Assembly: GCF_001458695.1 (NCBI RefSeq)
Contig: NZ_LN885086.1
Location: 570,001-602,000, forward strand
Direction: 5' to 3'
DNA: 32,000 bases
From: Candidatus Nitrospira inopinata
GTDB lineage: Bacteria; Nitrospirota; Nitrospiria; Nitrospirales; Nitrospiraceae
The notes below the pieces were generated by a model. It ran no database searches and was not told the origin of the DNA. It was given only the letters and a program-made list of their open reading frames with translations. A program made the position numbers and the translations under genes. Of the stretch, positions 3,136-32,000 are shown one piece after another; position 1 is the stretch's first letter; each line of letters starts with the position of its first letter.

Positions 3136-3401
3136 GAACGCTCCCTCCCCTTTTTCGCGCGGACCCACCCCTTTTCGCCTCGGCGCCCGTGAAGGTCTTG
3201 TGCTTCTCTCTCTTGCCGCTTTCTCCCTTGTACTCCTTCAAAATCAGTGCCCGCTTTTTTAGTCTGTCATTTATTTATTGCGCGCGCATATCCGCGCATC
3301 TGCCGCAATAGGCAACAGTGCAGGGGCAAAATGAACCAGTCCATCCGGTTGTCTTTGTGCGATACTAGGGTTTTGGAAGGTTCTGGAGGGACCATTCTTC
3401 T

Positions 3402-9928: not shown

Positions 9929-10288
9929 ATGAACATCGTAGTGGCGGCAAGTCTCATCATTCTTTTGGCGGCAACCCCCTGGGCCACCGCGCAGGTGCTT
10001 CGCGGCAATCCCAAGGCGGGAGAAACGGTGTACCAACAACAGTGTCTGCGCTGCCACGGAACCAACCTCGATGGCAACGGACCGGACAGTCGAGACTTGA
10101 TCGTGCCTCCGGCTGATTTCCGGTCTCCGGCCAGCCGATCCAAGACCGATTGGGAATTGCTCGTCTCGATCGCCAACGGCGTGCTGTTCACCCCGATGCA
10201 CAGTTTCCGCGGCAAACTGACGGACGAGCAGATGCTGGACGTGTTGTCCTACATCCGAGCCAGAATTCCGCCAGACATTGTCAGCTAA
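9929..10288 (+). CDS. monohaem class-I c-type cytochrome
   Basis: ATG 9929 after AAGGAG. Signal peptide. One CxxCH (CLRCHG). PPADFRS...MH...LTDEQMLDVLSYIRA. Close paralog of 20421..20786. Confidence 0.85.
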   Translation: MNIVVAASLIILLAATPWATAQVLRGNPKAGETVYQQQCLRCHGTNLDGNGPDSRDLIVPPADFRSPASRSKTDWELLVSIANGVLFTPMHSFRGKLTDEQMLDVLSYIRARIPPDIVS

Positions 10289-10296
10289 CATCACCC

Positions 10297-11451
10297 GTGC
10301 TCCGGCGACCGACAGCCCGGTGGCCATTCGCCCTGACGCTTGTTCTGTCTCTTGTTATCGGGCCAGCCGCTGGAGGCACAGATGTCCAAATCCACGATGC
10401 TCCGCCGGACATCGAAGTCTTCGTTCGCGCAGGCTGTCCCCATTGCGAGACCGCCAAAGTCTTCTTAGACACCCTACGCCGCGAGCAGCCGGAGCTTCGG
10501 ATCAAGTTCTATGACATCGGCGAGGATGCAGGCGCGCGACAACGGCTTGCCTCGATGGTTCACGATCGAGGCATGTCCGTCATTGGGGTTCCCACCTTCC
10601 TTATCGGAACAGACCTGATTATCGGCTTTCGCTCCAATGAGACGACCGGCGCGGACATTCGCGCGCTCGTGGCCCGCAACGCGCCGGCCACCGCAGCACC
10701 TTCGCTCATCGACAGTATCGAGACACCGTGGTTCGGTCGGCTGCACATCAAGGATTTCGGCCTTCCACTCTTCACCGTCATCATCGGCCTGCTGGACGGG
10801 TTCAATCCCTGCGCGATGTGGGTGCTGCTTTTTCTCCTGTCGCTGCTCGTCAATCTTCAGGATCGGTTCAAGATGGCGCTCATCGCCGGCACGTTCGTCC
10901 TCGTCAGTGGTCTGGTGTACTTGGCCTTCATGGCCGCATGGCTCAACGTATTTCTGGTCATCGGCTTTTCCCGCGCCATCCAGGTTGCGCTGGGCTGTGT
11001 CGCCTGCTTCATGGGAGCGGTCAACGTCAAAGATTTTGTCGCCTTCCGGCGTGGGGTCTCACTGAGCATTCCCGACTCGACGAAACCACGGTTCTACACC
11101 ATGGTTCGCCGAATCCTTCAAGCTGATCATCTCCCTGGCGCTTTGGTAGGCACCGTGGTGTTGGCTGTCTTTGTGAACGTGATCGAACTGCTGTGTACGG
11201 CTGGCTTCCCCATGCTCTATACTCAGATCCTCACCGCACAACAGCTCTCGGCTTGGGAATACTATGGCTACCTTGGTCTCTACAACCTGGCTTACATCTT
11301 CGATGACGGCCTCATGGTTGCGATTGCAGTGGTCACGCTGAGCCGAAGAAAATTGCAGGAACGAGCCGGCCGTTGGCTCAAACTCGCCGGCGGATCGCTC
11401 ATGATCGGGTTAGGGATCGTCTTGCTGTTTCGCCCTCAGTGGCTCGCCTGA
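10297..11451 (+). CDS. glutaredoxin/thioredoxin-fold domain (CPHC) fused to a DsbD/CcdA-like multi-TM thiol-disulfide transporter domain
   Basis: The frame is open from 10150, but a GTG at 10297 gives a signal-like N-terminus just after the cytochrome stop. VFVRAGCPHCETAKVFL...GVPTFLIG is the Grx/Trx fold. About 6 TM helices follow, with GFNPCAMWVLLF and ELLCTAGFP motifs resembling the DsbD_2/CcdA family. Confidence 0.65.
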   Translation: MLRRPTARWPFALTLVLSLVIGPAAGGTDVQIHDAPPDIEVFVRAGCPHCETAKVFLDTLRREQPELRIKFYDIGEDAGARQRLASMVHDRGMSVIGVPTFLIGTDLIIGFRSNETTGADIRALVARNAPATAAPSLIDSIETPWFGRLHIKDFGLPLFTVIIGLLDGFNPCAMWVLLFLLSLLVNLQDRFKMALIAGTFVLVSGLVYLAFMAAWLNVFLVIGFSRAIQVALGCVACFMGAVNVKDFVAFRRGVSLSIPDSTKPRFYTMVRRILQADHLPGALVGTVVLAVFVNVIELLCTAGFPMLYTQILTAQQLSAWEYYGYLGLYNLAYIFDDGLMVAIAVVTLSRRKLQERAGRWLKLAGGSLMIGLGIVLLFRPQWLA

Positions 11452-17224: not shown

Positions 17225-18145
17225 TCACACACCGAGATTCTGCCGAGGATTAAACGCCAGTTCCTGCGCCATCATCCGATAGAGTTGTCGAGCACGTTCT
17301 GTGTCCGCCGGCGGCAACACCACTTCCAACATGAGATACAGATCGCCCGGCGGATCGCTGGGAATCCCACGGCCCTTGAGCCGAAGTTTCTGCCCGCTTC
17401 GCGATCCCGGCGGAATCTTGACCTCCACCACGCCGGTCGGGGTCGGCGCCTTCACGGTCGCGCCCAGCGCCGCCTCCCAAGGAGCAATCGGCAGCGTCAA
17501 CGACAGATCGTGGCCGTCCACCCTGTAGAGCGAATGGGGATCAAAATGAACCTCCAAGTACAGATCGCCGCCCGATCCCGGCGCGCCCTGGCCGGCCAGT
17601 CTGATCAGTTGGCCTTCACGGATGCCCTTGGGAATCCGGACCTTGAGCGTGTGCTCGCGGAGCGAAACTCGGCCTTGTGCGTCCAGGTCCGGAACGCGCA
17701 GCGTGATGGCGCGGGTCGCTCCATGAAAGGCGTCTTCGAGTGGAATGACGATCTTCGCGTGCCGGTCTTCTCCCCGGCCCCGCCCCGCGCCGGCGCGACG
17801 GGAAAAATTACCGAAGAGGCTGGAAAAGAAGTCGCTGAATTCGGCGGCGTCCTCCGTCGAGAATCGGCCCGGAGAAAATTCAAATCCGGCCGCCCAGTCC
17901 GGCGGCGGCGTAAATTCCTGCCCCGCCTGCCAACCGCGGCCCAGTTGATCGTAGGCGGCCCGTTTCTGCGGATCGTGCAGCACCTCGTAGGCCTCGCTGA
18001 TCTCCTTGAATCGAGCCTCCGCGCCAGGCTCTTTGTTGACGTCGGGGTGGTAGGTCCGCGCGAGCTTTCGATAGGCCTTCTTGATCTCGTCGGCCGTGGC
18101 CGTCCGCTCAACGCCGAGAATCTTGTAGTAATCCTTAAATTCCAT
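17225..18145 (-). CDS. cbpA: curved-DNA-binding DnaJ-class co-chaperone CbpA
   Basis: 306 aa. J-domain DYYKILGVERTATADEIKKAYRKLARTYHPDVN with HPD. No Zn-finger Cys repeats. C-terminal DnaJ_C beta domains. Confidence 0.9.
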   Translation of the reverse strand: MEFKDYYKILGVERTATADEIKKAYRKLARTYHPDVNKEPGAEARFKEISEAYEVLHDPQKRAAYDQLGRGWQAGQEFTPPPDWAAGFEFSPGRFSTEDAAEFSDFFSSLFGNFSRRAGAGRGRGEDRHAKIVIPLEDAFHGATRAITLRVPDLDAQGRVSLREHTLKVRIPKGIREGQLIRLAGQGAPGSGGDLYLEVHFDPHSLYRVDGHDLSLTLPIAPWEAALGATVKAPTPTGVVEVKIPPGSRSGQKLRLKGRGIPSDPPGDLYLMLEVVLPPADTERARQLYRMMAQELAFNPRQNLGV

Positions 18146-18222: not shown

Positions 18223-19893
18223 TCATTGCCATTGGGCCGCTTCCCACGTGCGGTACGACCCCGTCAAGTTCCTCGCCCGGAAACCGTGCTGACCGAGCAG
18301 GCGCGCCGCAATATACGATCGTTGTCCGGTCTGGCAATAGACGACGATGTCACGATCTCGCGGCAATTCGTCCATGCGGCTCCGCAATTCATCCAATGGA
18401 ATATGGAATGAACCGGGGATCGCCCCCCGCGCCCGCTCATCCGGCCGACGGACATCCAACACGAAGGTTGTACGGGGATCAAGCGAAGCCATCTCTCGCC
18501 ACTGTGCCACCGCCACGTCGCCCTTCACCACGTTCTGCGCCACCATCCCCGCCACATTGACCGGGTCCTTGGCTGAACCGTAGGGAGGCGCATAGGCCAA
18601 TTCCAGATCCACCAGATCGTGGACCGTCATCCCGGCTTTGAGCGCAGTCGCCAACACATCGATCCGTTTATCCACCCCTTCCCGGCCGACGGCCTGTGCG
18701 CCGAGCAGCTTCCCCGTTTCCGGCGCGAACAGAATTTTCATCGCAATCGGCTCTGCGCCCGGGTAGTAGCCCGCATGGGACCCCGGATGCAGATGAACCA
18801 CCTGGAACGGAATAGCGGCCGCACGGAGGGTCTTTTCATTGGCTCCCGTGCAGGCAGCGGTGAGGGTAAACAGCCGGAGGATGGACGTGCCAAACGTCTC
18901 AGCGTATCGAGCGGGACGGCCCAGAATGTTGTCGGCGGCGATGCGGCCTTGGCGATTGGCTGGTCCGGCCAGTGGAACCAAGGCCCATTGCCCGGTGACG
19001 CCGTCACGGACCTCGATTGCGTCGCCTACGGCCCAGATCGAGGGATCGCTGGTCCTGAGCTGTTCATCGACCCGGATACCGCCCAGCGCGCCGATTTCCA
19101 AACCGGCTTCCCTTGCCAGTGTCACCTCCGGCTTGACGCCCATGCTGAGCACGACCGTATCAGCCGGCAATCGACGCCCGTTCTTGAGGACGACAAGAGA
19201 CGATTTGGCCGGTTCTTTTTCTGAGGGGGGCTCGAACGACACGACCGGATCGTTCAGATGCAACGTGACTCCGTTCTCACGCAGCTCCCGGTGCAGCCAG
19301 GCGGCCATGTCCGGATCGAGCGGCGCCATGACTTGGGGCTGCGCTTCGACCACCGTGACCTCGTGGCCGCGTCGTCGCAATTGTTCGGCCATCTCCAGAC
19401 CGATATACCCACCCCCCACCACCACGGCCCGACAGCGACCGCACTCACTCGACCAGGCCATGATCCGTTCGACGTCGGGAATGTTCCGCAGCATGAAATG
19501 ACCGGGCCGATCAATTCCCGGAAGCGGCGGTTTGAGGGGTGACGCGCCCATGGAGAGAATCAGCGCGTCATAGGCTTCGTCATACTCCCGGCCGGTCTCC
19601 ACCTCTCGTGCACGCACGAGACGGGCCGCCCGGTCGATTCGGATCACTTCCGTCTTCACTCGCACATCCAGATTGAACCGCGCCTTGAGGCTCTCCGGTG
19701 TCTGTACCAACAAACTGTCCGGCTCGGCGATTTCGCCGCCGACGAAATAAGGGAGCCCGCAATTGGCGAACGACACGTGCGGGCCCCGCTCGAAGATGAT
19801 GATCTCGCATGCCTCGCACACCCGCCGCGCCCTGGCCGCCGCCGTGGCGCCGCCCGCGACTCCACCGATGATGATGAGGCGACGACCCATCAC
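18223..19893 (-). CDS. CoA-disulfide reductase / NADH-dependent persulfide-reductase-type flavoprotein with C-terminal rhodanese domain
   Basis: 556 aa. FAD site IIGGVAGGATAAARA. Redox Cys in SFANCGLPYF, the CoADR/Nox signature. NAD site VVGGGYIGLE. C-terminal rhodanese with active-site loop VYCQTGQRS. Confidence 0.9.
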   Translation of the reverse strand: MMGRRLIIIGGVAGGATAAARARRVCEACEIIIFERGPHVSFANCGLPYFVGGEIAEPDSLLVQTPESLKARFNLDVRVKTEVIRIDRAARLVRAREVETGREYDEAYDALILSMGASPLKPPLPGIDRPGHFMLRNIPDVERIMAWSSECGRCRAVVVGGGYIGLEMAEQLRRRGHEVTVVEAQPQVMAPLDPDMAAWLHRELRENGVTLHLNDPVVSFEPPSEKEPAKSSLVVLKNGRRLPADTVVLSMGVKPEVTLAREAGLEIGALGGIRVDEQLRTSDPSIWAVGDAIEVRDGVTGQWALVPLAGPANRQGRIAADNILGRPARYAETFGTSILRLFTLTAACTGANEKTLRAAAIPFQVVHLHPGSHAGYYPGAEPIAMKILFAPETGKLLGAQAVGREGVDKRIDVLATALKAGMTVHDLVDLELAYAPPYGSAKDPVNVAGMVAQNVVKGDVAVAQWREMASLDPRTTFVLDVRRPDERARGAIPGSFHIPLDELRSRMDELPRDRDIVVYCQTGQRSYIAARLLGQHGFRARNLTGSYRTWEAAQWQ

Positions 19894-20420: not shown

Positions 20421-20786
20421 TCAGCCGATCGGATCAAACGGAGCCAAGCTCCGGATATACGACAAGATGTCCCAGATCTCTTGATCCGACAGACGATCCG
20501 CCCATCCGTGCATGGGGCTGAAAAGGACGCCGTGCTTGATCGCGAGATACAGATCCATATCCGTCTTGATTCGTGACTTGGCCGACCGGAAATTCGCCGG
20601 AGGCACGATCAGATCTTTGATGTCGGGCCCCAGTCCGTCACCGGCGGTTCCATGGCACCCGGCACAATGCCGTTCATAGAGCACCTTGCCTTCCTTAGGA
20701 ACACTCTGTTGAGACACTGCCGGCATCGGAGCGCTCATGAGCAAGACCATGGCAACAGTCAGAACGCCGAAGAGACGTGCCTTCAT
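20421..20786 (-). CDS. monohaem class-I c-type cytochrome
   Basis: ATG 20786. Signal peptide MKARLFGVLTVAMVLLMSAP. CAGCHG. PPANFRS...MH...LSDQEIWDILSYIRSL. Paralog of 9929..10288. Confidence 0.85.
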   Translation of the reverse strand: MKARLFGVLTVAMVLLMSAPMPAVSQQSVPKEGKVLYERHCAGCHGTAGDGLGPDIKDLIVPPANFRSAKSRIKTDMDLYLAIKHGVLFSPMHGWADRLSDQEIWDILSYIRSLAPFDPIG

Positions 20787-20878
20787 GCCTATCCTCTCTT
20801 TTTGAATGACCAAATGGCCAACTATAGCTCAGAAACTGGTTCTCAGGCCCTCAGGATCATCCATCGGTGCCATTGATC

Positions 20879-21484
20879 CTACCGTTCGGCGCCCAGCGGC
20901 CGTTTGATGCTCACCGCTCCCCGCAGATCGCCGGCCTGGTACCCTGTCGCTTGATCAAAGGGATATTGCGCCTTCAGCACCGTTGTTATCTCTTCCGGCA
21001 TCCGGTCGCTTGGCCCATGGCAAAGAAGACAATGGGGCTGCACCACGATCGGTTTCATAAACCGGTAGTACCGCCCGTTCGGTTCTATAACAATCTCACT
21101 GTGCGTCATTCCCATCAGATCCTCTCCCTTGGCCGCTCGCTCGGCAAATGTGGCCAGGACCTGCTGCTCCCAGACATCGGGCATGCCGAGCAGAGGATTG
21201 CGCACCCTCGTGCCCACTCTTGTCACCCGCCAGCCCTGTTCCCGCGACAATCGGCCGGCAAGTTCCGGCGCAAGATCGGCGCAGACCTTCACGACCTCCG
21301 TCGGACCTCCCTTGGCCATCTCCCTCCTCATAGCCTCGCCGAACTGCCTGATCAACGTAGTCGCCACCTCCGAAGCGGCCTTGTCGTATTCCGCGAGCTC
21401 AGCAGCTTGGCCCGTGAGGGGCGACACCGCCAACAAAGCGAAACCAGCCACCAGAAGTGTTCCTGCTCTTTCTCGTCTAATCAT
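20879..21484 (-). CDS. DUF3365 (Tll0287-like) periplasmic haem-c PAS-like domain protein
   Basis: ATG 21484 after AGGAGGGAGG. Signal peptide. RREMAKGGPTEVVKVCADLAPELA..., single CLLCHG, and C-terminal YQAGDLRGAVSI, as in DUF3365. Confidence 0.8.
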   Translation of the reverse strand: MIRRERAGTLLVAGFALLAVSPLTGQAAELAEYDKAASEVATTLIRQFGEAMRREMAKGGPTEVVKVCADLAPELAGRLSREQGWRVTRVGTRVRNPLLGMPDVWEQQVLATFAERAAKGEDLMGMTHSEIVIEPNGRYYRFMKPIVVQPHCLLCHGPSDRMPEEITTVLKAQYPFDQATGYQAGDLRGAVSIKRPLGAER

Positions 21485-21521
21485 CCCGCCCCCTCCCTCC
21501 TGAACCACCCCACCATCTCTC

Positions 21522-22301
21522 TCAATGTTCGTGCGTGGCTCCTCCGGTGGTCACGTCTCCCTCATGGTCATCGTTCCCATGCCCTTCCTGATGACCGGCG
21601 CCTGTTCCTCCATGACTTCCCTGTCCCATACTTCCATGCTCCATGCCACCCATCCCAGACTGGTGGCTGCCACCGGACTGGCCACCGTGTCCGCCATGGC
21701 CGCCTCCGCTCATTCCGCCTCCACCCATCCCACCACCCATGCCGCCGCGCCCTCGTCCTCCCATGCCGCCCATCATGCCGCCGCCACCCATGCCGCCGCC
21801 CATTCCTCCTCCACGCTGTCTCTTGCTTTCTCTTTTCATCTGCTCACGATGGGCGCGGTCCTTTTCCCGCTGATCGGGCGTCAACAGAACCTTGGCGCTC
21901 TGCTGAGCCTTGATCGCTGAAAAGAGCAAGGCTCCCTCCGATCGTTTCAGTTGCTCGATCTTTGCCTGAATCTCGGCGAGGTCGGTCTTTTCATCCTCGA
22001 GCAGCGCGTCCAGCTCAAGTTTGGCGATTTTTCGGTCGGCCTCCAATCGCGCCTCCGTCCGTTTGTAATCCAACTGAAGGGTCTTGAGCTTGGCGATTTG
22101 CTCGGCCGTGAGCCCGAACTCCTTGGCATGTTTCAACAGATGGGTAATGTAGTGTCCACTGTGGTCTGCCTGCTCCTCGGGATCGTGGCCTCCATGCCCC
22201 ATCTGCCCATGCCCCTGATCGGCCAACGCCGGCGATCCAGTCAGGCTCACGATCAAGAGGACGCTCGCCGCTTTTTGCCATGCTTTCCTCATCGATTGCA
22301 T
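21522..22301 (-). CDS. Spy/CpxP/ZraP-family periplasmic protein with His-rich N-terminus and long Gly/Met/His-rich C-terminal tail
   Basis: Signal peptide. HGQMGHGGHDPEEQADHSGH. The LTAEQIAKLKTLQLDY...LTPDQREK (LTxxQ) repeats define the Spy/CpxP/ZraP fold. The tail is RGGGMGGGMGGGGMMGGMGGRGRGGMGGGMGGGGMSGGGHGGHGG...HEGDVTTGGATHEH. Confidence 0.75.
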   Translation of the reverse strand: MQSMRKAWQKAASVLLIVSLTGSPALADQGHGQMGHGGHDPEEQADHSGHYITHLLKHAKEFGLTAEQIAKLKTLQLDYKRTEARLEADRKIAKLELDALLEDEKTDLAEIQAKIEQLKRSEGALLFSAIKAQQSAKVLLTPDQREKDRAHREQMKRESKRQRGGGMGGGMGGGGMMGGMGGRGRGGMGGGMGGGGMSGGGHGGHGGQSGGSHQSGMGGMEHGSMGQGSHGGTGAGHQEGHGNDDHEGDVTTGGATHEH

Positions 22302-23546: not shown

Positions 23547-24248
23547 CGACATGCCTCCAGACCTTTACATTTATGGGCTCTCTCATCTCAGGTCTCCGTG
23601 ATCCCCTCTGCGAACCACACCACAAACGACAAGCCCCGACTCATCTTTTTTCCGGCCTTTCTTGGTTTCCTTCTTTCCTCCTTCCTGATCCCTCGGCTGC
23701 AAATATCTGCTTCCTTCGACGTCCTATTGGTGGCTTGCGAAAGCCGACGACACAGCAAGATCGACGTCACGCCCTGTTGAGACGGAGCCGATGGCAATGA
23801 CAACCCAGACAGCCGAGGCAATGGTCGTATTTCTTCTCCAAAACATCCCGAACATCCTGCTCCCCCTGAGTTTTTTCGAACTCCCTAATAGAGCCCTTTG
23901 GAGGAAAATGCATGTTCGGTGCCGCAAGAAACCTCCGAACAAGTCTCGTCGCCACTCTGAATTTCTCAAATTAAAGAACTGCACTGCCATTTCGCGAGAG
24001 CCGCGAATCGTCATCACATCCCCTTACATCCCCACAACTTACACACACGACCTCGTAAGGATCAGGATTGCGCGTGCGTCCGTATGGGCTGCAGCAGAAT
24101 CGTTGGATCGCGCGTATACGCACGAACGACGGGTCGTCAAACAACTGTGTGGCGGGATTGTTGAGGCATGTTTGTCAGCGGATCAATTTTAACATCGGCC
24201 CTTGCTACTGACATGGAGCAGGCCGAGTCAGGCGACCATTAACTCCCG

Positions 24249-24785
24249 TCACTCATCTGCGGAGTCTTCTTGATCGTGAGGGCTTTCGGCTTGATGCCGA
24301 GGGCCCATTCTTGGCCCCATTCCCTCTCTAGGCCCCATGCCTCGACGGCCGTGTCTCTGGGCGAAGGTCCGTTCATACTGAATCACACTCCAAATCTCTT
24401 CGTCGGACAGCATGGTGCCGAATCCGACCATGGCCGTGCCGGGCGAACCGTGTTTGATCACCCAAAAAATCTCTCCCTCCGTGCGGTGTCGCCAAAATCC
24501 ATGGTGCCGGAAGTTCCTGGGCGGAGGGTTCAACTGAGCCGCCGCCGGGCCATTGCCATTCCCATCCACGCCGTGACAATTGAGACAGGTGCCCTTGCCG
24601 TGATAAATCGCCTTGCCTTGCTCGATGACCTCGGGAGAAAAGGGCACCGGGCTTTTGAGCGCCCGTGCCTCGGCCAGTTTATCGGGCGGTACTCTCGGCC
24701 GCATCAGGTGCCGTTCGGCGTCTGCCGGAGACGACGAAAGGGCGACCGTCGCCGCCAACAATAAGAAGCATGTTCCTTGTCTCAT
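24249..24785 (-). CDS. monohaem class-I c-type cytochrome with Met/Gly/Pro-repeat C-terminal tail
   Basis: ATG 24785 overlaps the upstream stop (ATGA). Signal peptide MRQGTCFLLLAATVALSSSPADA. CLNCHG. PPPRNF...IFWVIKHGSPGTAM...LSDEEIWSVIQY. Tail RGMGPREGMGPRMGPR. Confidence 0.85.
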   Translation of the reverse strand: MRQGTCFLLLAATVALSSSPADAERHLMRPRVPPDKLAEARALKSPVPFSPEVIEQGKAIYHGKGTCLNCHGVDGNGNGPAAAQLNPPPRNFRHHGFWRHRTEGEIFWVIKHGSPGTAMVGFGTMLSDEEIWSVIQYERTFAQRHGRRGMGPREGMGPRMGPRHQAESPHDQEDSADE

Positions 24786-25264
24786 GGTTCGGTCGCCTGT
24801 CCGTCCATTGCGAACGACCGCACGTAGCGTAGCACCAGCCACGCTTCTTCTTCCGTCAAAATGAGCGGAACAAAGGGAGCCATCGCCGTGCCCTTGCTGC
24901 CGTTCTTCAAAATCCAGAACAGCTCTCCATCGGTCCTGGCGGCCTGCCACTCCTTATCGGTGAAATCGCGAGGCAACGGCCCCCTCACCGTCCCCGGTTC
25001 GATGTCGCTGCCCAATCCTTTGCCGTCTTTTCCATGGCAGGTCACGCAGAATGCTTTTCCATGAAATAATTGCTTGCCCTTTTCGATCACCTCTTTGGTC
25101 GCCGGAAACGGATTGGTCCACGTTTTGACTTCCTCGATCTGATCCGCCGGCACCCGAGGCCTCAACACTGCTTTGTCCGCGCCAAAGGCTTGAAGGCTGG
25201 TCATTCCTATTGTCATCGCGCCGACCGTCATCACGAGCACCGTCGCCGAAAGATGGACGTTCAT
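24782..25264 (-). CDS. monohaem class-I c-type cytochrome (tandem paralog)
   Basis: ATG 25264. Signal peptide. CVTCHG. LPRDF...LFWILKNGSKGTAM...LTEEEAWLVLRYVRSF. Collinear with 24249..24785. Confidence 0.85.
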   Translation of the reverse strand: MNVHLSATVLVMTVGAMTIGMTSLQAFGADKAVLRPRVPADQIEEVKTWTNPFPATKEVIEKGKQLFHGKAFCVTCHGKDGKGLGSDIEPGTVRGPLPRDFTDKEWQAARTDGELFWILKNGSKGTAMAPFVPLILTEEEAWLVLRYVRSFAMDGQATEP

Positions 25265-25356
25265 TTCTCTTGCCTCTTCACACGCTCTCTCATGACCACC
25301 TGCAGAGGAGGACCGGCCTCCCGTTTCCGGCAAGCCGGTCCACCAGACCGGCCTCC

Positions 25357-25878
25357 TTACTTGTCCGCGTAGCCGGGGAACTTGTGTCCGAGCGACTGAG
25401 GATAGGTCACGGTGCCATCCGGAAATTCCTGGCCATGTTGCCAGAGGTGATAAATCACCCCATCCGTCTGGGCCGCAGCCTCCGCCACCTTGGCGGCCTG
25501 GTCATCGGGCATATCCAGGACTTTCACGCGGCCCGTCGCAATCTCGACCTTGTGATCGTGAAAATAGCGATGCCAATGGATGGCGGGCAATTTTCTCGTG
25601 AGATCCTTGGCGACAAAATATTCGACACCGACGAGCGGCGCCTTGGGATCGGTGGATTCGAACAGGAGACACTGAAGAATCTTGTCGGAAATGCCCTTGC
25701 AGTAATGGTGGAACGGCCCGCCCGGCGTCCCATCCGGCATCATATGCGGCGCCTGAACGTGAATCTCGTACCCCATCGCCGGACTGGCCGGCTCCCCACC
25801 GATAGCCATCGGCGGCATGGCCCCGATAGATCCCATGGCAACCATTGCAACAGCGGTGACGAACCCCTTTCTTATCAT
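25357..25878 (-). CDS. DUF1264 (OBAP-like) domain protein, exported
   Basis: ATG 25878 after GGAAGGGGG. Signal-like N-terminus. FHHYCKGISDKILQCLLFES...PLVGVEYFV...HWHRYFHDHKVEIATGR resembles the DUF1264 family. Confidence 0.7.
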   Translation of the reverse strand: MIRKGFVTAVAMVAMGSIGAMPPMAIGGEPASPAMGYEIHVQAPHMMPDGTPGGPFHHYCKGISDKILQCLLFESTDPKAPLVGVEYFVAKDLTRKLPAIHWHRYFHDHKVEIATGRVKVLDMPDDQAAKVAEAAAQTDGVIYHLWQHGQEFPDGTVTYPQSLGHKFPGYADK

Positions 25879-26014
25879 AACAGCCCCCTTCCTTTGTTTG
25901 CGGCATCCCGGCCCGGCCCATCCGGACTGAGAAACAGTTCCGCCTGTGACTGACCGTTGGAGACCGACAGGCTCAAAAGGATTCACTCGGGGGGCATTGC
26001 TCAACACGCCTCTG

Positions 26015-27088
26015 TCACAAATCCAATTCCACCATCTTGCGGTGGAACCGAACGACCACGTTCGGATCGGGCGCCAACCGGACCCGCGCATCCTCTTTTC
26101 CCTGATAGGGCAACAGGTTCAGGACGTAGCGAAGACTTTCAAGTCGCGCCGCCTGCTTGTCATTGGCCTGCACGATGATCCAAGGGCTGAACGTCGTATG
26201 GGTTTTGCTGAACATTTCCTCTTTGCAGCGGGTATAGGCGTCCCACAACTCTTGCGCCTTCTCATCGACCGGACTGAGTTTCCACTGTTTGAGTGGATTC
26301 CGGCGCCTCGCCTCGAAGCGTCTGGCCTGTTCGTCCTTCGAGATCGAGAACCAAAACTTGATGAGAATCACCCCGTCTTCGTAGAGCATATGCTCGAATT
26401 CCGGAACCTGCTGGAGGAACCGCTGATGTTCTTTCTTGGTGCAAAACCCCATCACCGGTTCGACCACGGCCCGGTTGTACCAGCTTCGATCGAAGAAGAC
26501 GATCTCGCCTCTGTTCGGCAACTGACGAATGTATCGCTGAAAGTACCATTGACCCCGTTCTTCATCGGTCGGCTTCGGCAAGGCCACAACGCGCATCGAG
26601 CGGGGATTCAGATGTTCGGTAAACCGCCGGATGGTTCCCCCCTTGCCGGCCGCATCCCGCCCCTCCACCAAAATCGCGATACGTTCTCCCGTCCGCTGAA
26701 CCCACCGTTGCAGCTTCACCAACTCCACTTGCAGTTGCTCCAGCTCGTGCTCGTACAGAAGTCTCTTGCGGACGTCCTGAAGATCGACGTTGCGGTTCCG
26801 CAGGAGCAGAAAAAGCCCCCTTCTCGTGTTGATCAACCGCAGATCTTCTTCTGTAAGGGAACCGGCTGGATCACCGATCGGTTTCAGCGACCCCGCCGGA
26901 GACCTTGCTAGTTGCGGGGAATAGCCGTCCCCCTCCCGAGGCATCCTCGTCGGAATCGTTTCCAGCTCACTCGCCTCCGGAGGTTGGGCCGGATGCAGGA
27001 GATCCTCGATGTCCGCCAGATCAGCCGTCAAGTCGGATGAATCGCTTCGTTTTTTCGGCTTTCCAATCGCGCGTTCGTCGGATTCCAT
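26015..27088 (-). CDS. ppk2: polyphosphate kinase 2 (single PPK2 domain) with about 100-aa acidic/disordered N-terminal extension
   Basis: 357 aa. SD GAGGAGG. Walker A VEGRDAAGKGGTI. FQRYIRQLPNRGEIVFFDRSWYNRA is the PPK2 lid/Walker B region. Confidence 0.9.
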   Translation of the reverse strand: MESDERAIGKPKKRSDSSDLTADLADIEDLLHPAQPPEASELETIPTRMPREGDGYSPQLARSPAGSLKPIGDPAGSLTEEDLRLINTRRGLFLLLRNRNVDLQDVRKRLLYEHELEQLQVELVKLQRWVQRTGERIAILVEGRDAAGKGGTIRRFTEHLNPRSMRVVALPKPTDEERGQWYFQRYIRQLPNRGEIVFFDRSWYNRAVVEPVMGFCTKKEHQRFLQQVPEFEHMLYEDGVILIKFWFSISKDEQARRFEARRRNPLKQWKLSPVDEKAQELWDAYTRCKEEMFSKTHTTFSPWIIVQANDKQAARLESLRYVLNLLPYQGKEDARVRLAPDPNVVVRFHRKMVELDL

Positions 27089-27116
27089 ACGAGGCGCCTC
27101 CTCTCAACCGCACGAA

Positions 27117-27476
27117 TCAGAACGCCACGACCTTGTCCCGCTCGGCCACCGCCTTGATGTAATCCGGCATCGCCTTGATGGAAGCCCCCTTGACCAGATC
27201 CGCCTCGCCGATTTGCCTGGCCACGGCGCACGCCCCGCACACCCAGATGGGCACCCCGGCCGCCTGCACGGCGGCGAGCAGGTCTTTTAGCGGCGAAAGA
27301 TTGACGCCGGTGACATGATCGGCCACGCCTTTCCGCGCCAACGTGACCGCCTCGTTCCACAGCCAGAGCGCCACGTCATGCCCCTGCTCTTTGGCCGTCT
27401 TCGCCGCCATGAACGGCAAGGTTGCCATCGTCGGATCGTCCGTGCCTCGACTTCCTGAGATGATGAATGTCGCCAT
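27117..27476 (-). CDS. DsrE/DsrF-like sulfur-relay family protein
   Basis: ATG 27476 after AAGGAG. 119 aa. MATFIISGSRGTDDP...GHDVALWLWNEAV...VCGAC pattern typical of the DsrE family fold. Its stop lies 28 nt before ppk2. Confidence 0.8.
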   Translation of the reverse strand: MATFIISGSRGTDDPTMATLPFMAAKTAKEQGHDVALWLWNEAVTLARKGVADHVTGVNLSPLKDLLAAVQAAGVPIWVCGACAVARQIGEADLVKGASIKAMPDYIKAVAERDKVVAF

Positions 27477-27667
27477 GAATGTCTCCTTCTTTACAAGTTC
27501 GTCACGTCGGCCCTCAATCCCCTTGGTTCCTTCATCCACCGCACGACTGACCTGACCGTGAACACCGCGCCGCCGCCTCTACAAAGGCGGACCTTCAGAC
27601 CCTGGATCAGAGTCGGGTAACCCCCTTCACCGCCCAGGGCCTGGGCCATCAGCTTTGACCATTCTCG

Positions 27668-27703
27668 CAGCAAAATGGGATGAAGTTCGCTTGCCGAGCG
27701 AAC
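27668..27703 (-). terminator. rho-independent-type terminator after the cupredoxin-like gene
   Basis: On the minus strand, GTTCGCT-cggca-AGCGAAC (7-bp stem, 27703-27685) followed by TTCATCCCATTTTGC. Confidence 0.4.
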
Positions 27704-27729
27704 CGTCCTCGAACGCGCTCAAGACACGC

Positions 27730-28224
27730 TCACCCCCCGCCGATCTCTCCTCGAGTTTCGATCACAAACAACTCGCCTTTCACCTCGGGATGGATATCAC
27801 ACCAAAGGGCGTGCCGGATACTTTCCGCCCCACCGGTCAGCGGGTCGAAATTCGACGGCGCCGTCGCAAAACGCAGCGTCATCGTCTTGCCGGCATCGAC
27901 GTGAAAGGACCGAAACTGTTTTCCCCGCACCTCGGTCCCACCTTCGACCTTCACGGGAATGTCCTTGAACAACGCCGATGCGAAGCCGTGTGTCACGGAA
28001 TCCTGGTTGCGGACGACAATGATCGTGTCGTGCGACGGCATCGTGATGCCAACCGTCTCATAACCGTGCTGGCGGTCCCTGATGGTGATTTCCACTTTTG
28101 AGGGCGGCGCCTCCATCCCCTTGGCCTGTGCATACGCAACATCTCTCTGACCGCTCCACGCCATCAACGGTACGATGGCAAGTGACATGGCGAACAATGG
28201 TGATCGGTATCGTCGAACGTTCAT
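27730..28224 (-). CDS. exported cupredoxin-like single-domain protein (atypical ligand set)
   Basis: ATG 28224 after AAAGGGAGGGG. Signal peptide. Beta-rich pattern VEITIRD...TIIVVRNQDSVTHGFAS...FHVDAGKTMTLRF...LWCDIHPEVKGELFV matches Cupredoxin_1-type proteins (His ... Cys-x2-His). Val occupies the position where the axial Met is expected. Confidence 0.6.
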   Translation of the reverse strand: MNVRRYRSPLFAMSLAIVPLMAWSGQRDVAYAQAKGMEAPPSKVEITIRDRQHGYETVGITMPSHDTIIVVRNQDSVTHGFASALFKDIPVKVEGGTEVRGKQFRSFHVDAGKTMTLRFATAPSNFDPLTGGAESIRHALWCDIHPEVKGELFVIETRGEIGGG

Positions 28225-28463
28225 GTTTCCCCTCCCTTTTGATAACGATAGCATTTCGCCCCCTCTTCTCCAGGGAACGTTCGGCCCCTTCGGACCGTGT
28301 CGGCCTCGACGTTTACTTCCCTCCTTTCCCCCATCTCCATCATCTGGGCCATGAGCGCCGGCGTTCAGCTATTTCGGCCTCGCTGAAGAGCGCGGCGGCC
28401 ATCGACGGGTTGCCCATTCCATCTATGGACCGCTTCCCTGAACTCAGGCCTCACACCACTTCA

Positions 28464-29876
28464 TCACTTCGCCAAGCTCCTGATGTATCGAATCAACTGC
28501 CACACCTGCTCATCCGTCAGCCCGGAAAACGCCATCATGCCGGTGCCGGGCGAGCCGTTTTTGATGATCCAGAACAATTGCCCGTCGGGAATATTCTCCA
28601 TCATCGCGCCGCATGTGAAGTTTCTCGGCGGCGGGACCAACGCGGCGCCCATCAGCCCCTTTCCATCGCCCTGCTCGCCGTGGCACATGGCGCAGACGAC
28701 GGGCTGCGCGGTTTTCAAAAACAGCGCCTTCCCCTCGGCGATCGCGGAAGCGGAAGGCGGCACCGGATTCGTCATGCGCAAGAACTCATCGGGAGCCTTG
28801 GCCGTCTTGCGGGGCTGTACGCAGCCGCCGGCCTCGCCAACGCTCGGCGCCGCCGGTTCGGGCGCCCCCTTGAACGTCGCCTTCAAATAGACGATCACGT
28901 CCACCACGCCCTGCTGTCCGATCGTCAGCCCCCAGTACGGCATGGTCGGCGATTTGCCGACGGCCCGGCCGCCGTGGTTGATCACGTTGTACAGATATTC
29001 CATCGGCAGTTTCTCAAACGGTATGTTGGCGTGAATGGCCGGTTTCGGCTCCAACCCAGACGCCGCGGGGCCGTCGCCCTTGCCCGTGAAGCCGTGGCAC
29101 TGGGCGCAATATTCCCTGTACAGCGTCTTGCCCCGATCGACGCTCGCGGTGGCAAACTCGGGACTCGTCCAGGGCTCGTAGTATTGAAAGTCGTTGACGC
29201 CTTGCACGGCGAGAAAGCCGATCAGCGACCGCAATTGTGCGTCGGTCGCGTCGGCCAAAAATTCCCCAGAATGGATGACGAAGTCCTGCGGATTCTGGCC
29301 GAAACGATACAGCCAGTCCGCGTTGTAGCGCCGACCGGCATGTTGTAAGGCGGTGCTCTGCGGACCTCCGATCAGCTTTCCATTCTCCTCGATCGTGTGA
29401 CAGCCGATGCAGGCATGTTCCTTGTAGATTTTCGCGCCGACCGTCACGTCGAACTTCGTCACCTTCGCCACGTCGAAAGCTCCGACCGTCACACGCGGAT
29501 CCTTGTTGTGTTCGGCAAAATAGTCGGCGAGGGCGTTCGCGTCAGACTCCGTCACCACCGGATGCTTCGATGGCACATTCGTGATGTCCCAAAGATACGC
29601 CTTGGCGTAGAGCGGCGGCTCCTTTCCGGTCAACCAACGAATGAGCCACGGTCGCTGATACTTGCTGCCGGCCCATATCAGATCAGGCGCATGGAGCTTG
29701 AACCGTGATTCAGCCGTTCCTTGCAGTCTGTGACATTGCACGCAGATCCGTTGAACAAGATCCTTGGCACGAGCATGAGACGGCTCACTTCCGTAAGAAA
29801 GATCCTGCCCCCACCCCAGTCCGACACAGAGCACCATGATTCCCGCCGCCGCATGCCCCGCTTTTCTCAGATTCAT
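28464..29876 (-). CDS. tetrahaem c-type cytochrome (four class-I-like domains)
   Basis: ATG 29876. Signal peptide. Four CxxCH motifs (CVQCH, CIGCH, CAQCHG, CAMCHG). The last domain carries the PPPRNF...LFWIIKNGSPGTGM...LTDEQVWQLIRYIRSL signature of the free-standing monohaem paralogs. Confidence 0.85.
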   Translation of the reverse strand: MNLRKAGHAAAGIMVLCVGLGWGQDLSYGSEPSHARAKDLVQRICVQCHRLQGTAESRFKLHAPDLIWAGSKYQRPWLIRWLTGKEPPLYAKAYLWDITNVPSKHPVVTESDANALADYFAEHNKDPRVTVGAFDVAKVTKFDVTVGAKIYKEHACIGCHTIEENGKLIGGPQSTALQHAGRRYNADWLYRFGQNPQDFVIHSGEFLADATDAQLRSLIGFLAVQGVNDFQYYEPWTSPEFATASVDRGKTLYREYCAQCHGFTGKGDGPAASGLEPKPAIHANIPFEKLPMEYLYNVINHGGRAVGKSPTMPYWGLTIGQQGVVDVIVYLKATFKGAPEPAAPSVGEAGGCVQPRKTAKAPDEFLRMTNPVPPSASAIAEGKALFLKTAQPVVCAMCHGEQGDGKGLMGAALVPPPRNFTCGAMMENIPDGQLFWIIKNGSPGTGMMAFSGLTDEQVWQLIRYIRSLAK

Positions 29877-29990
29877 TTTCCGTCCTTCCCCTCTTGAAAT
29901 CCCGTGGAAACCCATGAGGTCGCCGGTCGTTGCTTTGCGATTTCTCGTCCTCCCGGCTGGTGCGCGAAATCTTCTTGGGGCAATGTCTCG

Positions 29991-30854
29991 TTAATACGGC
30001 GCATCGGTCGGTTTTCCGCCCTTCGGCCAATCATGAATTTTTTTAGGAAAGTCCGGGCGCGGCCGGCTGTCAATGTAGGCCGCCACGTCGAACGCCTCCT
30101 CGTCCGTGATCGACCATCCTCGCCCACGCGGCATATTGGCCTTGATGAAGGACGCAGCCACGCTGACTCTCGCCATGTCCGAGCCGATCGTATAGGAGCG
30201 AGGGCCCCACACCGGCGGCGCCGCCATGGCCCCTTGCCCATCGGCGCCATGGCAAAAGGCGCATTTCTTTTCATAGACGACTTTGCCCTTCGCGACGTCC
30301 GGAGCCCTCACCGGCGTGATGGGCGGGAGTCCTCGCCAAGGCACGGAACTGCCACGCGGGACATTCTTCGACAACCAGTCGATGTAGGCGACGATTGCCG
30401 ACAGCTTCGTGCTGTCCGCCGGAAGCGCCGTCCCATTCATGTTCCGCTCGAAACAGTCGTTGATTTGGTCGATAAGCGTCACCCGCCGTCCCGCCCGTTC
30501 TCGGTATTCCGGATAGAGGATGCTGATCCCGACGAACGAGAGCGCGTTGGGATGAAGCCCGGCCTCGAGATGGCAATTGGTACAGTTGAGCCCATTGCCG
30601 ACGTACCGTTTCCCATACTGCTGCGTATCGACCACCATCAGGTAGCCCATCCGAATATCCTCGCCCCGCAAATCACCAGGAATCGTGTCCGGGGATGGAG
30701 GCAGAAACAAGGGATGGATGTCCGCCCCCGGCGGTTCCCTCTGTCCTCCAACCTGGGCCGACGGGATACACCCACCGACCAGCAGAATCAGACCAAAAAC
30801 CACGACGCCAACGCCCCTCTGTTCGCTCACAATCACAACCTCACTTCTTGGCAT
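29991..30854 (-). CDS. dihaem c-type cytochrome lipoprotein, TsdA-like (thiosulfate dehydrogenase / tetrathionate reductase family)
   Basis: Two CxxCH motifs (CTNCH, CAFCHG). A conserved-looking Cys lies in INDCFERNMNG, 39 residues after the first haem His. KANMP lies 39 residues after the second haem His. PPVWGPRSY and RPRPDF motifs. Lipobox LLVGGC. Alternative GTG starts at 30836/30830 have a better SD and would remove the 14-nt overlap with the upstream gene. Confidence 0.7.
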   Translation of the reverse strand: MPRSEVVIVSEQRGVGVVVFGLILLVGGCIPSAQVGGQREPPGADIHPLFLPPSPDTIPGDLRGEDIRMGYLMVVDTQQYGKRYVGNGLNCTNCHLEAGLHPNALSFVGISILYPEYRERAGRRVTLIDQINDCFERNMNGTALPADSTKLSAIVAYIDWLSKNVPRGSSVPWRGLPPITPVRAPDVAKGKVVYEKKCAFCHGADGQGAMAAPPVWGPRSYTIGSDMARVSVAASFIKANMPRGRGWSITDEEAFDVAAYIDSRPRPDFPKKIHDWPKGGKPTDAPY

Positions 30855-31059
30855 CGGACGACGGTCGGCACGTATTGATGCCCAACAGCGCCGTGAGCGG
30901 ACAATATTGGATCGCCCCTGTCACGAGCAACACGACTCCCACTGTCAACGTGATGCCCATTCCCACCGGAGGCAATTCCGCGAGCGCCCCGACTCCGATC
31001 AATAATAACCCCATGACAATGCGGATGGGCCTTTCAATTCCTCCGACGTTACAGGTCAT
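30841..31059 (-). CDS. DUF2892 (YgaP-type) small two-TM membrane protein
   Basis: 72 aa. NVGGIERPIRIVMGLLLIGVG...LLVTGAIQYCPLTALLGINTC matches the DUF2892 signature (NVGxxDRxxRxxxG ... CPxYxxxGxxTC). Confidence 0.8.
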   Translation of the reverse strand: MTCNVGGIERPIRIVMGLLLIGVGALAELPPVGMGITLTVGVVLLVTGAIQYCPLTALLGINTCRPSSDAKK

Positions 31060-31148
31060 GACGCTCCTCCTTGCAAAAGAGTATCGGGGGAAACACCCCC
31101 CTTTCTTCTCGGCCTATGAGAGACACCATTTGACGAATGGATTCATCC

Positions 31149-31529
31149 TCACGGACGCGCGTCGGATTCCGCGCCGAGCGTTCGCACATAGGCCACGACA
31201 TCCCAAATTTCTTCATCGGACAGCGCGTGTTGCCACGCTCCCATGGCCGTGTTGGGTTTGCCTCCGTGGATGCGTGTGAACAGCCCTCCATCAAGACGAT
31301 TCTGAACGGCGGCGGAGGTCAGATCGGCCGGCGGCGGCACGAGATTGACGCCCGTCTTCCCTTTCCCATCAATACCATGACAACGCATGCACGTATTCAC
31401 GTAAATTTCCCGCCCACTGACCGGATCGCCCTTGAGAGCGGCGCCAAGCTCTCTGACCGTCGGCCTTCCGGCAAACCCAGCCACCAGGATTCCGATGACC
31501 AGAATAAGCCATCCCTTCCTGCCTCGCAC
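31149..31529 (-). CDS. monohaem class-I c-type cytochrome (membrane-anchored or signal peptide)
   Basis: The ORF is open to ATG 31601, but GTG 31529 lies 6 nt after AGGAGG and gives MRGRKGWLILVIGILVAGFA. CMRCHG. PPPADL...NTAM...LSDEEIWDVVAYVRTL. Confidence 0.8.
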   Translation of the reverse strand: MRGRKGWLILVIGILVAGFAGRPTVRELGAALKGDPVSGREIYVNTCMRCHGIDGKGKTGVNLVPPPADLTSAAVQNRLDGGLFTRIHGGKPNTAMGAWQHALSDEEIWDVVAYVRTLGAESDARP

Positions 31530-31623
31530 CGGCTCCCTCCTGTCTTCTCCTGAGGCCCTCGTGCGAGCAGTGTGCCACAACGATCCGTCTCGCCTTTTCA
31601 CAAGATGCTTTCACAGGCAAGCA

Positions 31624-31649
31624 TTTGAACTGATCTTTTTGAACTGATC
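31624..31649. repeat. 12-nt tandem direct repeat TTTGAACTGATC x2 (14-bp period) upstream of the cytochrome gene
   Basis: Exact copies at 31624-31635 and 31638-31649. Each contains GATC. The adjacent inverted repeat ATGCTT-N8-AAGCAT lies at about 31600-31619. Confidence 0.6.
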
Positions 31650-31782
31650 ATGGAGCTGTCATGGAACCCCAAAGGAATCGTCACTGGCGCGAATGGCCAC
31701 AGAGCCCATTTCGCCGCTGGCGCAGGATGCGACAGCTCTCGTTAAGAAAAACGTATCAGCTTAATTTAAGACAAGCCGCACC

Positions 31783-31811
31783 TTGACAAAAGAGCGTCAG
31801 ACCCAGATATT
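31783..31811 (+). promoter_or_regulatory. candidate sigma70 promoter TTGACA-N17-GATATT firing toward the window end
   Basis: Perfect -35 TTGACA (31783-31788), a 17-nt spacer and a -10 GATATT (31806-31811). It is followed by about 190 nt without a convincing ORF up to the window edge. Confidence 0.35.
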
Positions 31812-32000
31812 GCGGACATTCCCGACTGAGAAGTCTTGGAGTAGGATTGATGCATCACCGGCTACAGGTGGAGCCCTTCGGCGATTTCCGTTACCAGCCA
31901 AGTGGCACGACGCAGCCGTCACGGTCATCCGGCTGAGCGGCATGTAGAGTGGAAGACAGGACGCTCAACGCTCTGGACGATTATCAGGTTCCTGGCAGCA

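Follow-up and report, generated by a model that had tools for sequence, protein, structure and literature searches.

In Candidatus Nitrospira inopinata, a gene cluster was found that encodes a dihaem cytochrome c of the thiosulfate dehydrogenase (TsdA) family together with other cytochromes, a predicted cupredoxin and proteins that may handle sulfur. The cluster lies on the minus strand of a stretch of 32,000 nucleotides (nt) that was analysed as a whole (positions 570,001 to 602,000 of contig NZ_LN885086.1, assembly GCF_001458695.1; hereafter the window), and all positions given for N. inopinata are counted from the first letter of this window. Enzymes of the TsdA family interconvert two molecules of thiosulfate and one of tetrathionate plus two electrons. 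As read from the sequences, the dihaem protein belongs to this family, the small protein encoded two genes downstream has the fold and ligand pattern of a cupredoxin, the order of the genes is conserved within Nitrospira and their distribution is modular. We give an even chance to the reading in which this cluster is the form that a tsdA locus takes in Nitrospira, reduced in N. inopinata, with TsdA wired to the neighbouring cytochromes and cupredoxin and with a sulfur-handling branch in addition.

The dihaem cytochrome and its place in the TsdA family

Residues 53-274 of the dihaem protein match the structures of TsdA from Allochromatium vinosum (AvTsdA; PDB 4wq7/4v2k) with 45% identity over 222 aligned residues (E 1e-54), and the TsdA part of the fusion protein TsdBA from Marichromatium purpuratum (PDB 5lo9) is matched as well (E 1e-40). 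Its CXXCH motifs are CTNCH at residue 91 and CAFCH at residue 198. By alignment, haem 1 would be ligated by His95 and Cys134 (His53 and Cys96 in AvTsdA) and haem 2 by His202 and Met241 (His164 and Met209), with Asn240 in place of AvTsdA Lys208; for this mapping the chain numbering of the PDB was used, and the ligands fell at the positions given in the literature (His53/Cys96 and His164/Lys208/Met209). All four ligand positions, as well as Asn240, agree in 23 of 23 Nitrospira orthologues. Cys134, for which ligation is predicted from the alignment, lies within the motif I-N-D-C-F-E-R. The protein was also compared with SoxA, an identity that is not borne out by the score of the SoxA equivalog model TIGR04484 (35 bits, far under the cut-off of 110). 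The sequence-only reading had called the protein TsdA-like; the full-length alignment, the retained Cys134 and a PF21342 score above the cut-off place it inside the family, of which it is a member as far as sequence can show. An argument from the substrate-pocket arginines of AvTsdA was dropped, because the residues taken for them did not fall on arginines in the alignment.

It is very improbable that the protein serves as a mere electron-transfer cytochrome that acts on no sulfur substrate. Such a role would agree with its NCBI annotation, which is just 'c-type cytochrome' (the annotation of JGI names its orthologues 'thiosulfate dehydrogenase'), but the similarity to the enzyme extends over the full length and the Cys haem ligand, which would be unusual in a pure carrier, is strictly conserved. 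In TsdA of Campylobacter jejuni (CjTsdA) the active-site haem ligand is a Cys as well (Cys138), and its replacement nearly abolishes activity (PMC5146829). It is because of this conserved ligand that we consider the carrier role unlikely.

At haem 2, the motif K-A-N-M of N. inopinata equals the K-x-N-M of CjTsdA. The Met ligand is strictly conserved among TsdA proteins (Met255 in C. jejuni) and is preceded by either Lys or Asn (PMC5146829). Since CjTsdA is biased towards reduction, this likeness speaks for a rather improbable alternative in which the Nitrospira enzyme mainly reduces tetrathionate to thiosulfate with electrons from the cytochrome pool and serves sulfur salvage or detoxification instead of energy gain. 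The direction of catalysis is, however, modulated by residues around haem 2 and is not decided by the Lys/Asn identity alone (PMC5146829). The enzyme of N. inopinata may work in either direction.

TsdA is probably periplasmic and lipid-anchored, because its hydrophobic N-terminal signal ends in a lipobox-like L-x-G/S-C with a Cys (Cys29) that is conserved in the orthologues. The characterised enzymes of A. vinosum and C. jejuni are soluble. With AvTsdA the Nitrospira protein shares the two-domain dihaem build, the His/Cys haem 1 and the His and Met at haem 2; it differs from AvTsdA in its lipoprotein signal, in the Asn for Lys208, for which reason no Lys/Met ligand switch would be expected, and in having neither a HiPIP gene nor a gene for a known AvTsdA acceptor nearby. 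With CjTsdA it has in common the haem-2 motif, a locus without TsdB and monohaem cytochromes c as likely partners (PMC5146829). CjTsdA, in contrast, works in the anaerobic respiration of tetrathionate and is supplied by the bc1 complex, whereas Nitrospira is an aerobic nitrifier, and the Nitrospira locus has extra genes for DUF2892, a tetrahaem cytochrome, one or more cupredoxins, OsmC and DsrE. The TsdBA of M. purpuratum (PDB 5lo9) resembles the Nitrospira system in its homologous TsdA part and in the idea of a dedicated multihaem acceptor encoded beside tsdA, but no neighbour protein here resembles the TsdB part.

Conservation and modularity of the locus in Nitrospira

The sequence-only reading had proposed a gene-neighbourhood search for the arrangement, and this search returned a conserved syntenic block in Nitrospira, found again in dozens of species at 57-97% protein identity. 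The consensus order is cytochrome c, DUF2892, TsdA, (PmpA/B-like), OsmC, tetrahaem cytochrome, cupredoxin, second cupredoxin, DsrE, PPK2, and it holds between species whose TsdA identity is as low as about 63%; in several relatives, the DUF1264 gene and the two monohaem cytochromes that lie beyond PPK2 in N. inopinata follow PPK2 again. In N. inopinata, and likewise in the relatives of it that come from hot springs (L007, L008 and L010 in our numbering of loci), the locus has no OsmC, no pair of transporter halves and no second cupredoxin. A search for pseudogenes detected no remnants of the YeeE-like halves, of OsmC or of the second cupredoxin in the N. inopinata window. The fuller locus L085 has the same upstream context, FtsH-Mla-VIT1-OsmC, as that of N. 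inopinata, so that the two are orthologous.

Loci were collected in two ways. Fishing with the cupredoxin, with one genome retained per species, gave 50 loci, all from Nitrospira, 34 of them with both flanks. Tetrahaem cytochrome, TsdA and DsrE accompany the cupredoxin in 17 of these 34, the tetrahaem-cupredoxin pair is the only part present in 12, the pair occurs with DsrE in one and the cupredoxin is alone in four. TsdA was thus always found with DsrE, on the other side of the pair, while DsrE occurred once without TsdA. Fishing with TsdA in metagenome contigs and by exact look-ups, which corrects the sampling bias, yielded ten loci with enough downstream sequence, among which species may repeat; DsrE was present in nine of the ten, the tetrahaem cytochrome in six and the cupredoxin in one. 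When the sets were pooled, 24 TsdA loci had at least 5.5 kb downstream, and these contained DsrE (23), the tetrahaem cytochrome (22), OsmC (21), the cupredoxin (18), PPK2 (17), the second cupredoxin-like gene (16) and the pair of half-size PF04143 genes (7). Upstream of TsdA, the monohaem cytochrome was found in 28 and DUF2892 in 24 of the 32 loci with enough flank.

The conserved gene order is not a matter of chance; selection acts on a real block, which is nevertheless modular. TsdA is most firmly associated with the monohaem cytochrome upstream of it, with OsmC and with the cytoplasmic DsrE. The sequence-only reading had counted the monohaem cytochrome in without stressing it, had put DsrE outside the unit and had missed OsmC, because N. 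inopinata has none at this locus. Of its proposal that five genes form one module, the conserved order stood; the indivisible unit did not, given the 12 lone pairs among the 34 loci and the TsdA-fished set, in which six of ten loci have the tetrahaem cytochrome and one has the cupredoxin. The arrangement could not be extended beyond Nitrospira, as tblastn detected no accessory gene in the non-Nitrospira TsdA loci at about 40% identity (L074 and L076-L078).

This modularity is what an alternative of limited probability builds on, in which independent units are merely juxtaposed: TsdA would work with the monohaem cytochrome only, the tetrahaem-cupredoxin pair would be a general carrier, for instance from nitrite oxidoreductase to the terminal oxidase, and DsrE and PPK2 would form an unrelated cytoplasmic pair. 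Consistent with it, the pair stands alone and in another context in 12 of the 34 species loci, as in L057, where ispH lies on one side of it and a methyltransferase/two-component system on the other, some TsdA loci lack the pair, the region is rich in other cytochrome c genes, the intergenic gaps are wide, and the tetrahaem cytochrome and cupredoxin are more conserved across species (72-97% identity) than TsdA (57-88%), as expected of core carriers. It is opposed by the constant order down to a TsdA identity of about 63%, by the presence of the tetrahaem cytochrome also inside TsdA loci that have no cupredoxin, and by the co-occurrence of TsdA and DsrE across the pair in the 34 loci (both in 17, DsrE only in one, the pair alone in 12). 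Since TsdA and DsrE co-occur on opposite sides of the pair, the pair appears embedded in a functional unit instead of being merely adjacent; since the pair also stands alone, it cannot be specific to TsdA.

A number of observations weigh against a single wired locus. Most synteny counts stem from cupredoxin-fished loci, which inflates the apparent linkage of the cupredoxin. The pair occurs without TsdA or DsrE in the 12 loci already mentioned, TsdA loci without the tetrahaem cytochrome exist (L062, L065 and L084), most TsdA-fished loci are without the cupredoxin, and lineage-I-like loci hold the cupredoxin among tandem paralogues and unrelated small open reading frames (ORFs). The DsrE protein is only distantly related to any studied sulfurtransferase, and its nearest solved relative is YchN. 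Moreover, the gaps of 239 and 253 nt around the cupredoxin gene make several transcripts possible.

As for signals between the genes, which may nevertheless be co-transcribed, a terminator after the cupredoxin gene had been claimed; a consensus scan detected none there, and the hairpins at about 27665-27730, just after the cupredoxin stop codon, have no U-tract and fold no better than shuffled sequences (z -1.3). The sole terminator-like hairpin in the cluster (31086-31101) also has a fold that is not significantly better than shuffles. No promoter-like sites and no intergenic RNA fold better than shuffles were detected in the gaps of the cluster, and an Rfam scan of 24000-32000 gave one sub-threshold chance match only. 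In the N. inopinata lineage, the gaps on either side of the cupredoxin gene (28225-28463 and 27477-27729) are collinear with those of the close relatives L007 and L008, with which the overall nucleotide identity is about 87%, and neither a gene remnant nor an Rfam motif could be recognised in them; in most other species about 47 nt separate the tetrahaem cytochrome and cupredoxin genes.

Putative electron carriers and sulfur-linked neighbours

The upstream monohaem cytochrome, with its motif CMRCH at residue 47, has as closest solved relatives CcoP domains, c552/c6 cytochromes and the haem-2 domain of TsdA, and is a candidate for the direct redox partner of TsdA. Its N-terminal hydrophobic segment would fit a membrane anchor as well as a signal peptide that is cleaved off. 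The tetrahaem cytochrome has CXXCH motifs at residues 45, 156, 257 and 395. Its domains resemble generic class-I cytochromes, with a Kuenenia dihaem protein (6h5l_B) as the best solved match. Among its 798 homologues, the best 120 have 74-92% identity and every one of those with a named source is from Nitrospira; the family is Nitrospira-specific. A likeness to TsdB was considered for the tetrahaem cytochrome, the upstream monohaem cytochrome and one of the two downstream monohaem cytochromes and was rejected, as the PDB search returned generic class-I or TsdA haem-2 domains. Among the cluster cytochromes searched against the PDB there is no TsdB-like dihaem c4-type protein, the TsdB half of 5lo9 remaining unmatched.

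In many Nitrospira the genes of the tetrahaem cytochrome and cupredoxin make up a unit of two, separated by 45-207 nt, with neither TsdA nor DsrE within 10 kb (L057 8493-10495; L016-L021, L025, L029, L032, L033, L039, L042 and L044). A 135-residue ORF after the lone pair of L057 was compared with the second cupredoxin of L058 and showed no homology.

The small protein encoded after the tetrahaem cytochrome in N. inopinata gave no Pfam match at E <= 0.01 (Cupredoxin_1, PF13473, reached 14.2 bits and E 0.046, under the cut-off of 27), and sequence and profile searches against the PDB gave nothing meaningful (E > 0.3). An exhaustive search of 1.84 billion representatives with a hidden Markov model delineated a family of only 104 clusters at E <= 0.001, and 35 of 47 aligned members match Cupredoxin_1 at E <= 0.01 (best E 2.4e-12). 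A first structure model built from 17 close homologues was unusable, with a predicted local distance difference test (pLDDT) score of 43, and a deeper alignment was used instead; the resulting AlphaFold model has a pLDDT of 73.7, with a core at about 85-95. The top Foldseek matches of this model in the PDB are almost all cupredoxin folds with a probability of 1.00, at modest template modelling (TM) scores of 0.4-0.7, and include laccase domains, AcoP, EfeO, auracyanin and a copper-bound Bacillus anthracis Cupredoxin_1 protein. The cupredoxin fold of the protein is thus supported by the predicted model.

Among 53 family members, Asn73, His79, Cys142, His145, Gly150 and Glu151 are invariant or nearly so, and the loop reads C-D-L-H-P-x-M-K-G-E, or C-x2-H-x2-M, a spacing which we take to be that of the amicyanin loop. 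The axial Met is present in 33 of these 53 members; N. inopinata has Val148, and Val occupies the position across the whole Nitrospira clade. The designation as a Met-less cupredoxin, made from the sequence alone, was therefore borne out, with the fold prediction and the His/Cys/His ligand pattern in agreement. The protein resembles the amicyanin-type, AcoP, auracyanin and Cupredoxin_1 (PF13473) proteins in its predicted fold, in the upstream His with the C-x2-H loop and in the axial Met of its family relatives. Unlike these single-domain type-1 copper proteins, the Nitrospira clade has an axial Val and an invariant Glu three residues further on, the N. inopinata protein scores under the Pfam threshold and its copper site is putative. 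An axial residue that is aliphatic and does not coordinate usually raises the potential of a type-1 copper site. The cupredoxin is expected to be of high potential because its axial Met is absent, and such a carrier would fit an organism whose main donor, nitrite, is itself of high potential.

A second secreted cupredoxin-like protein of 155 amino acids (T-H-V-F ... Y-C-P-L-H), with no obvious axial Met, is encoded next after the first in 16 of the 24 TsdA loci (for instance L058 10696-11163 and L085 12514-12981) and is not found in N. inopinata. In the lineage-I-like Nitrospira (L060 6473-10447 and L061 2075-6049), the cupredoxin lies in a run of eight small ORFs that have no Pfam record, behind a PAS-LuxR regulator and with no tetrahaem cytochrome; at least four of the eight are paralogous cupredoxin-like proteins, with 35-71% identity to the two cupredoxin types.

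On the sulfur side, the DsrE protein has no signal peptide, has E. coli YchN (1jx7, E 5e-5) as its nearest solved relative by sequence and carries a motif W-V-C-G-A-C that is invariant in 34 orthologues. Lacking a signal peptide it is, by its sequence, cytoplasmic, and cannot belong to a periplasmic electron path such as the earlier combination implied. Neither the locus nor its counterparts in relatives yielded DsrF/H, TusA or Hdr-like genes, and YchN is homo-oligomeric. The protein resembles YchN and the DsrE3A/TusA system of Metallosphaera cuprina in being a small cytoplasmic DsrE fold with a conserved Cys, encoded beside the gene of a tetrathionate enzyme; it differs from that system in that no TusA, Hdr-like or DsrFH genes lie near it and that a reaction with tetrathionate would be conjecture here. 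Metallosphaera DsrE3A is reported to react with tetrathionate to give a Cys-thiosulfonate (PMC4175335). The DsrE-PPK2 pair, 28 nt apart, was seen again in 17 of 24 related loci.

The DUF2892 protein has two hydrophobic stretches, which make up a bare two-helix membrane domain, and no rhodanese domain. It shares the transmembrane hairpin with YgaP, but it consists of the membrane domain only, with no fused rhodanese. Across 27 orthologues, C3, C53 (within Y/F-C-P-L) and C64 are kept, save for a single deviation at C64.

In relatives, two half-size PF04143 (YeeE/PmpAB-type) genes and OsmC stand between tsdA and the tetrahaem cytochrome gene (L058 7041-8535, L085 8910-10386, L064 11353-12832), the first of the two corresponding to the Pfam model's C-terminal half and the second to its N-terminal half. 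Proteins of the YeeE family are importers of thiosulfate (PMC11073785, PMC11582611), and split PmpAB-type halves were proposed to act as YeeE-like importers (PMC11582611). The relatives' loci resemble these YeeE/TsuA and split PmpAB systems in having the two halves right after tsdA; unlike there, no YeeD/TusA partner is present, the substrate is putative and the N. inopinata locus has no such genes.

The thiosulfate import by this family, the adjacency of the PF04143 halves and OsmC to tsdA in relatives and the constant link of a cytoplasmic DsrE with TsdA are again consistent with the salvage alternative, according to which thiosulfate would be taken up by the split YeeE-like transporter (in relatives), and perhaps through DUF2892, and be processed by the DsrE-like protein and OsmC for assimilation or thiol protection. 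For this extension, too, the probability is small: N. inopinata has neither the transporter halves nor OsmC at this locus, and no detectable remnants of them, and a set of several cytochromes and a cupredoxin exceeds the needs of an assimilatory route.

In the reading that we prefer, that of a wired tsdA locus, TsdA would interconvert thiosulfate and tetrathionate, a couple with a potential of +198 mV (PMC5146829), at the periplasmic face of the inner membrane, with the His/Cys-ligated haem 1 as the catalytic one and the His/Met-ligated haem 2 passing the electrons. The monohaem cytochrome upstream, which is the redox neighbour found most constantly, may be the first to exchange electrons with TsdA; CjTsdA works with monohaem cytochromes and not with TsdB (PMC5146829). 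In most loci, a second exchange would follow with the Nitrospira-specific tetrahaem cytochrome, from which one or more secreted Met-less cupredoxins could carry electrons towards a terminal oxidase, at the high-potential end of the chain, which nitrite oxidation uses as well. The pair of tetrahaem cytochrome and cupredoxin would then be a general electron-carrier unit of Nitrospira, often but not always inside the TsdA locus. In the sulfur branch, DUF2892 and DsrE, and in relatives the split YeeE/PmpAB-like transporter and OsmC, may take up thiosulfate or tetrathionate and process it through thiol chemistry. We infer each of these electron transfers, and the roles of DsrE and DUF2892, from the gene context and the protein families. 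The sequence-only reading had seen in the cluster a complete path to a high-potential carrier; it is the adjacency of the genes that suggests such a path, and we regard continuity from thiosulfate to copper as plausible.

Layout of the locus and implications for Nitrospira

The six genes from the monohaem cytochrome to DsrE were found on the minus strand in the order that had been claimed (Table 1). From the monohaem cytochrome to PPK2, the spacings in order of transcription are 89, -14, 114, 239, 253 and 28 nt, the negative value being a 14-nt overlap between the DUF2892 and TsdA genes.

Table 1. Features of the N. inopinata tsdA locus and the genes downstream of it (positions in the window)
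Feature	Position	Strand	Characteristics
Monohaem class-I cytochrome c	31149-31529	minus	126 aa (amino acids); one CXXCH; N-terminal hydrophobic segment; PF13442/PF00034
GC-rich hairpin between the monohaem cytochrome and DUF2892 genes	31086-31101	minus	consensus terminator scan
DUF2892/YgaP-like two-helix membrane protein	30841-31059	minus	72 aa; PF11127, E 4e-20, 72 bits
TsdA, dihaem cytochrome c	29991-30854	minus	287 aa; PF21342 (SoxA-TsdA_cyt-c), 49.4 bits, cut-off 27
Tetrahaem c-type cytochrome	28464-29876	minus	470 aa; four class-I domains; signal peptide; PF13442/PF00034 repeats
Predicted secreted single-domain cupredoxin	27730-28224	minus	164 aa; single Cys; His79/Cys142/His145, Val148
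DsrE-family protein, YchN-like	27117-27476	minus	119 aa; PF02635, E 3e-21, 76 bits, cut-off 22.7
PPK2 (polyphosphate kinase 2)	26015-27088	minus	PF03976, E 9e-98; TIGR03707, 364 bits, above cut-off
DUF1264 gene	25357-25878	minus	Pfam; gene calls
Two further monohaem cytochromes c	24782-25264 and 24249-24785	minus	Pfam; gene calls

The part of the window from 20 to 31.6 kb is unusually dense in periplasmic cytochrome c, with five monohaem, the dihaem and the tetrahaem cytochromes. Further genes on the same strand near the cluster, which are kept in relatives, encode a Metal_resist-like protein (21522-22301), a Tll0287-like protein (20879-21508) and a monohaem cytochrome c (20421-20813). The absence of a classical dihaem TsdB, which had been noted before, is upheld by the searches against the PDB; those of SoxXAYZB and DsrAB were looked at in a scan of the larger ORFs of the window, which detected no Sox families among them.

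A rhodanese-fused pyridine-nucleotide-disulfide reductase, placed 8 kb away by the sequence-only reading, is indeed present at 18223-19893, at a distance of 7.2 kb from the cluster. It has 556 residues with a C-terminal rhodanese domain, resembles coenzyme A-disulfide/persulfide reductases and is followed by a DnaJ-type gene (17225-18145). The reductase has 94% identity with its counterpart in the close relative L007 and was not seen in most other TsdA loci, so that its link to the cluster is unsupported. Unrelated genes of the window encode a TPR protein with an FGE-sulfatase domain (1885-3168), a 433-residue ORF with a glutaredoxin domain (10150-11451) and an ADP-forming acyl-coenzyme A synthetase-like protein with coenzyme A-binding and ATP-grasp domains (11522-13702).

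To our knowledge, no TsdA has been described with this set of neighbours, namely a TsdA that is itself a lipoprotein, together with monohaem and tetrahaem cytochromes, Met-less cupredoxins, DUF2892, OsmC and a YchN-like DsrE, in a locus that has neither TsdB nor HiPIP. In the literature searched we found no paper on TsdA or thiosulfate dehydrogenase in Nitrospira or comammox (complete ammonia oxidising) bacteria, none that treats the locus under its NITINOP locus tags and no account of the arrangement, in keeping with the earlier impression that it had not been described. TsdA itself is well known and the JGI pipeline already names the Nitrospira enzyme; it is the partner set that appears to be new. 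A 2025 comparative-genomics paper on the Nitrospirales gives SorAB and SQR only as their sulfur metabolism (PMC12342949), for which reason the Nitrospira tsdA locus appears to have been overlooked. In the unrelated nitrite oxidiser Nitrotoga, tsdA was noted by one paper.

The locus provides a genetic context for a stand-alone DUF2892, a YchN-like DsrE and a small family of Val-axial cupredoxins, and the Nitrospira-wide pair of tetrahaem cytochrome and cupredoxin may belong to the high-potential respiratory chain of the genus. It is possible, though doubtful, that thiosulfate can serve comammox and many canonical Nitrospira as an additional donor of electrons, or tetrathionate as an acceptor, by way of TsdA, the monohaem cytochrome, the tetrahaem cytochrome, one or more cupredoxins and the oxidase of nitrite oxidation, coupled to a cytoplasmic branch of YeeE-like protein, DUF2892, OsmC and DsrE. 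As N. inopinata is in pure culture, the central prediction is directly testable.

No nitrite oxidisers are more widespread than Nitrospira, to which the complete ammonia oxidisers also belong, and the alternative energy sources already found in them, hydrogen, formate, urea and cyanate, have changed the views on their ecology. If TsdA is functional, thiosulfate or tetrathionate would join this list. In sand filters, groundwater, hot springs and wastewater, the types of site from which the genomes originate, nitrification would then be tied to the cycling of sulfur, and a previously unrecognised link between sulfur and nitrogen in nitrifiers, with a new set of partners for TsdA, would come into view.

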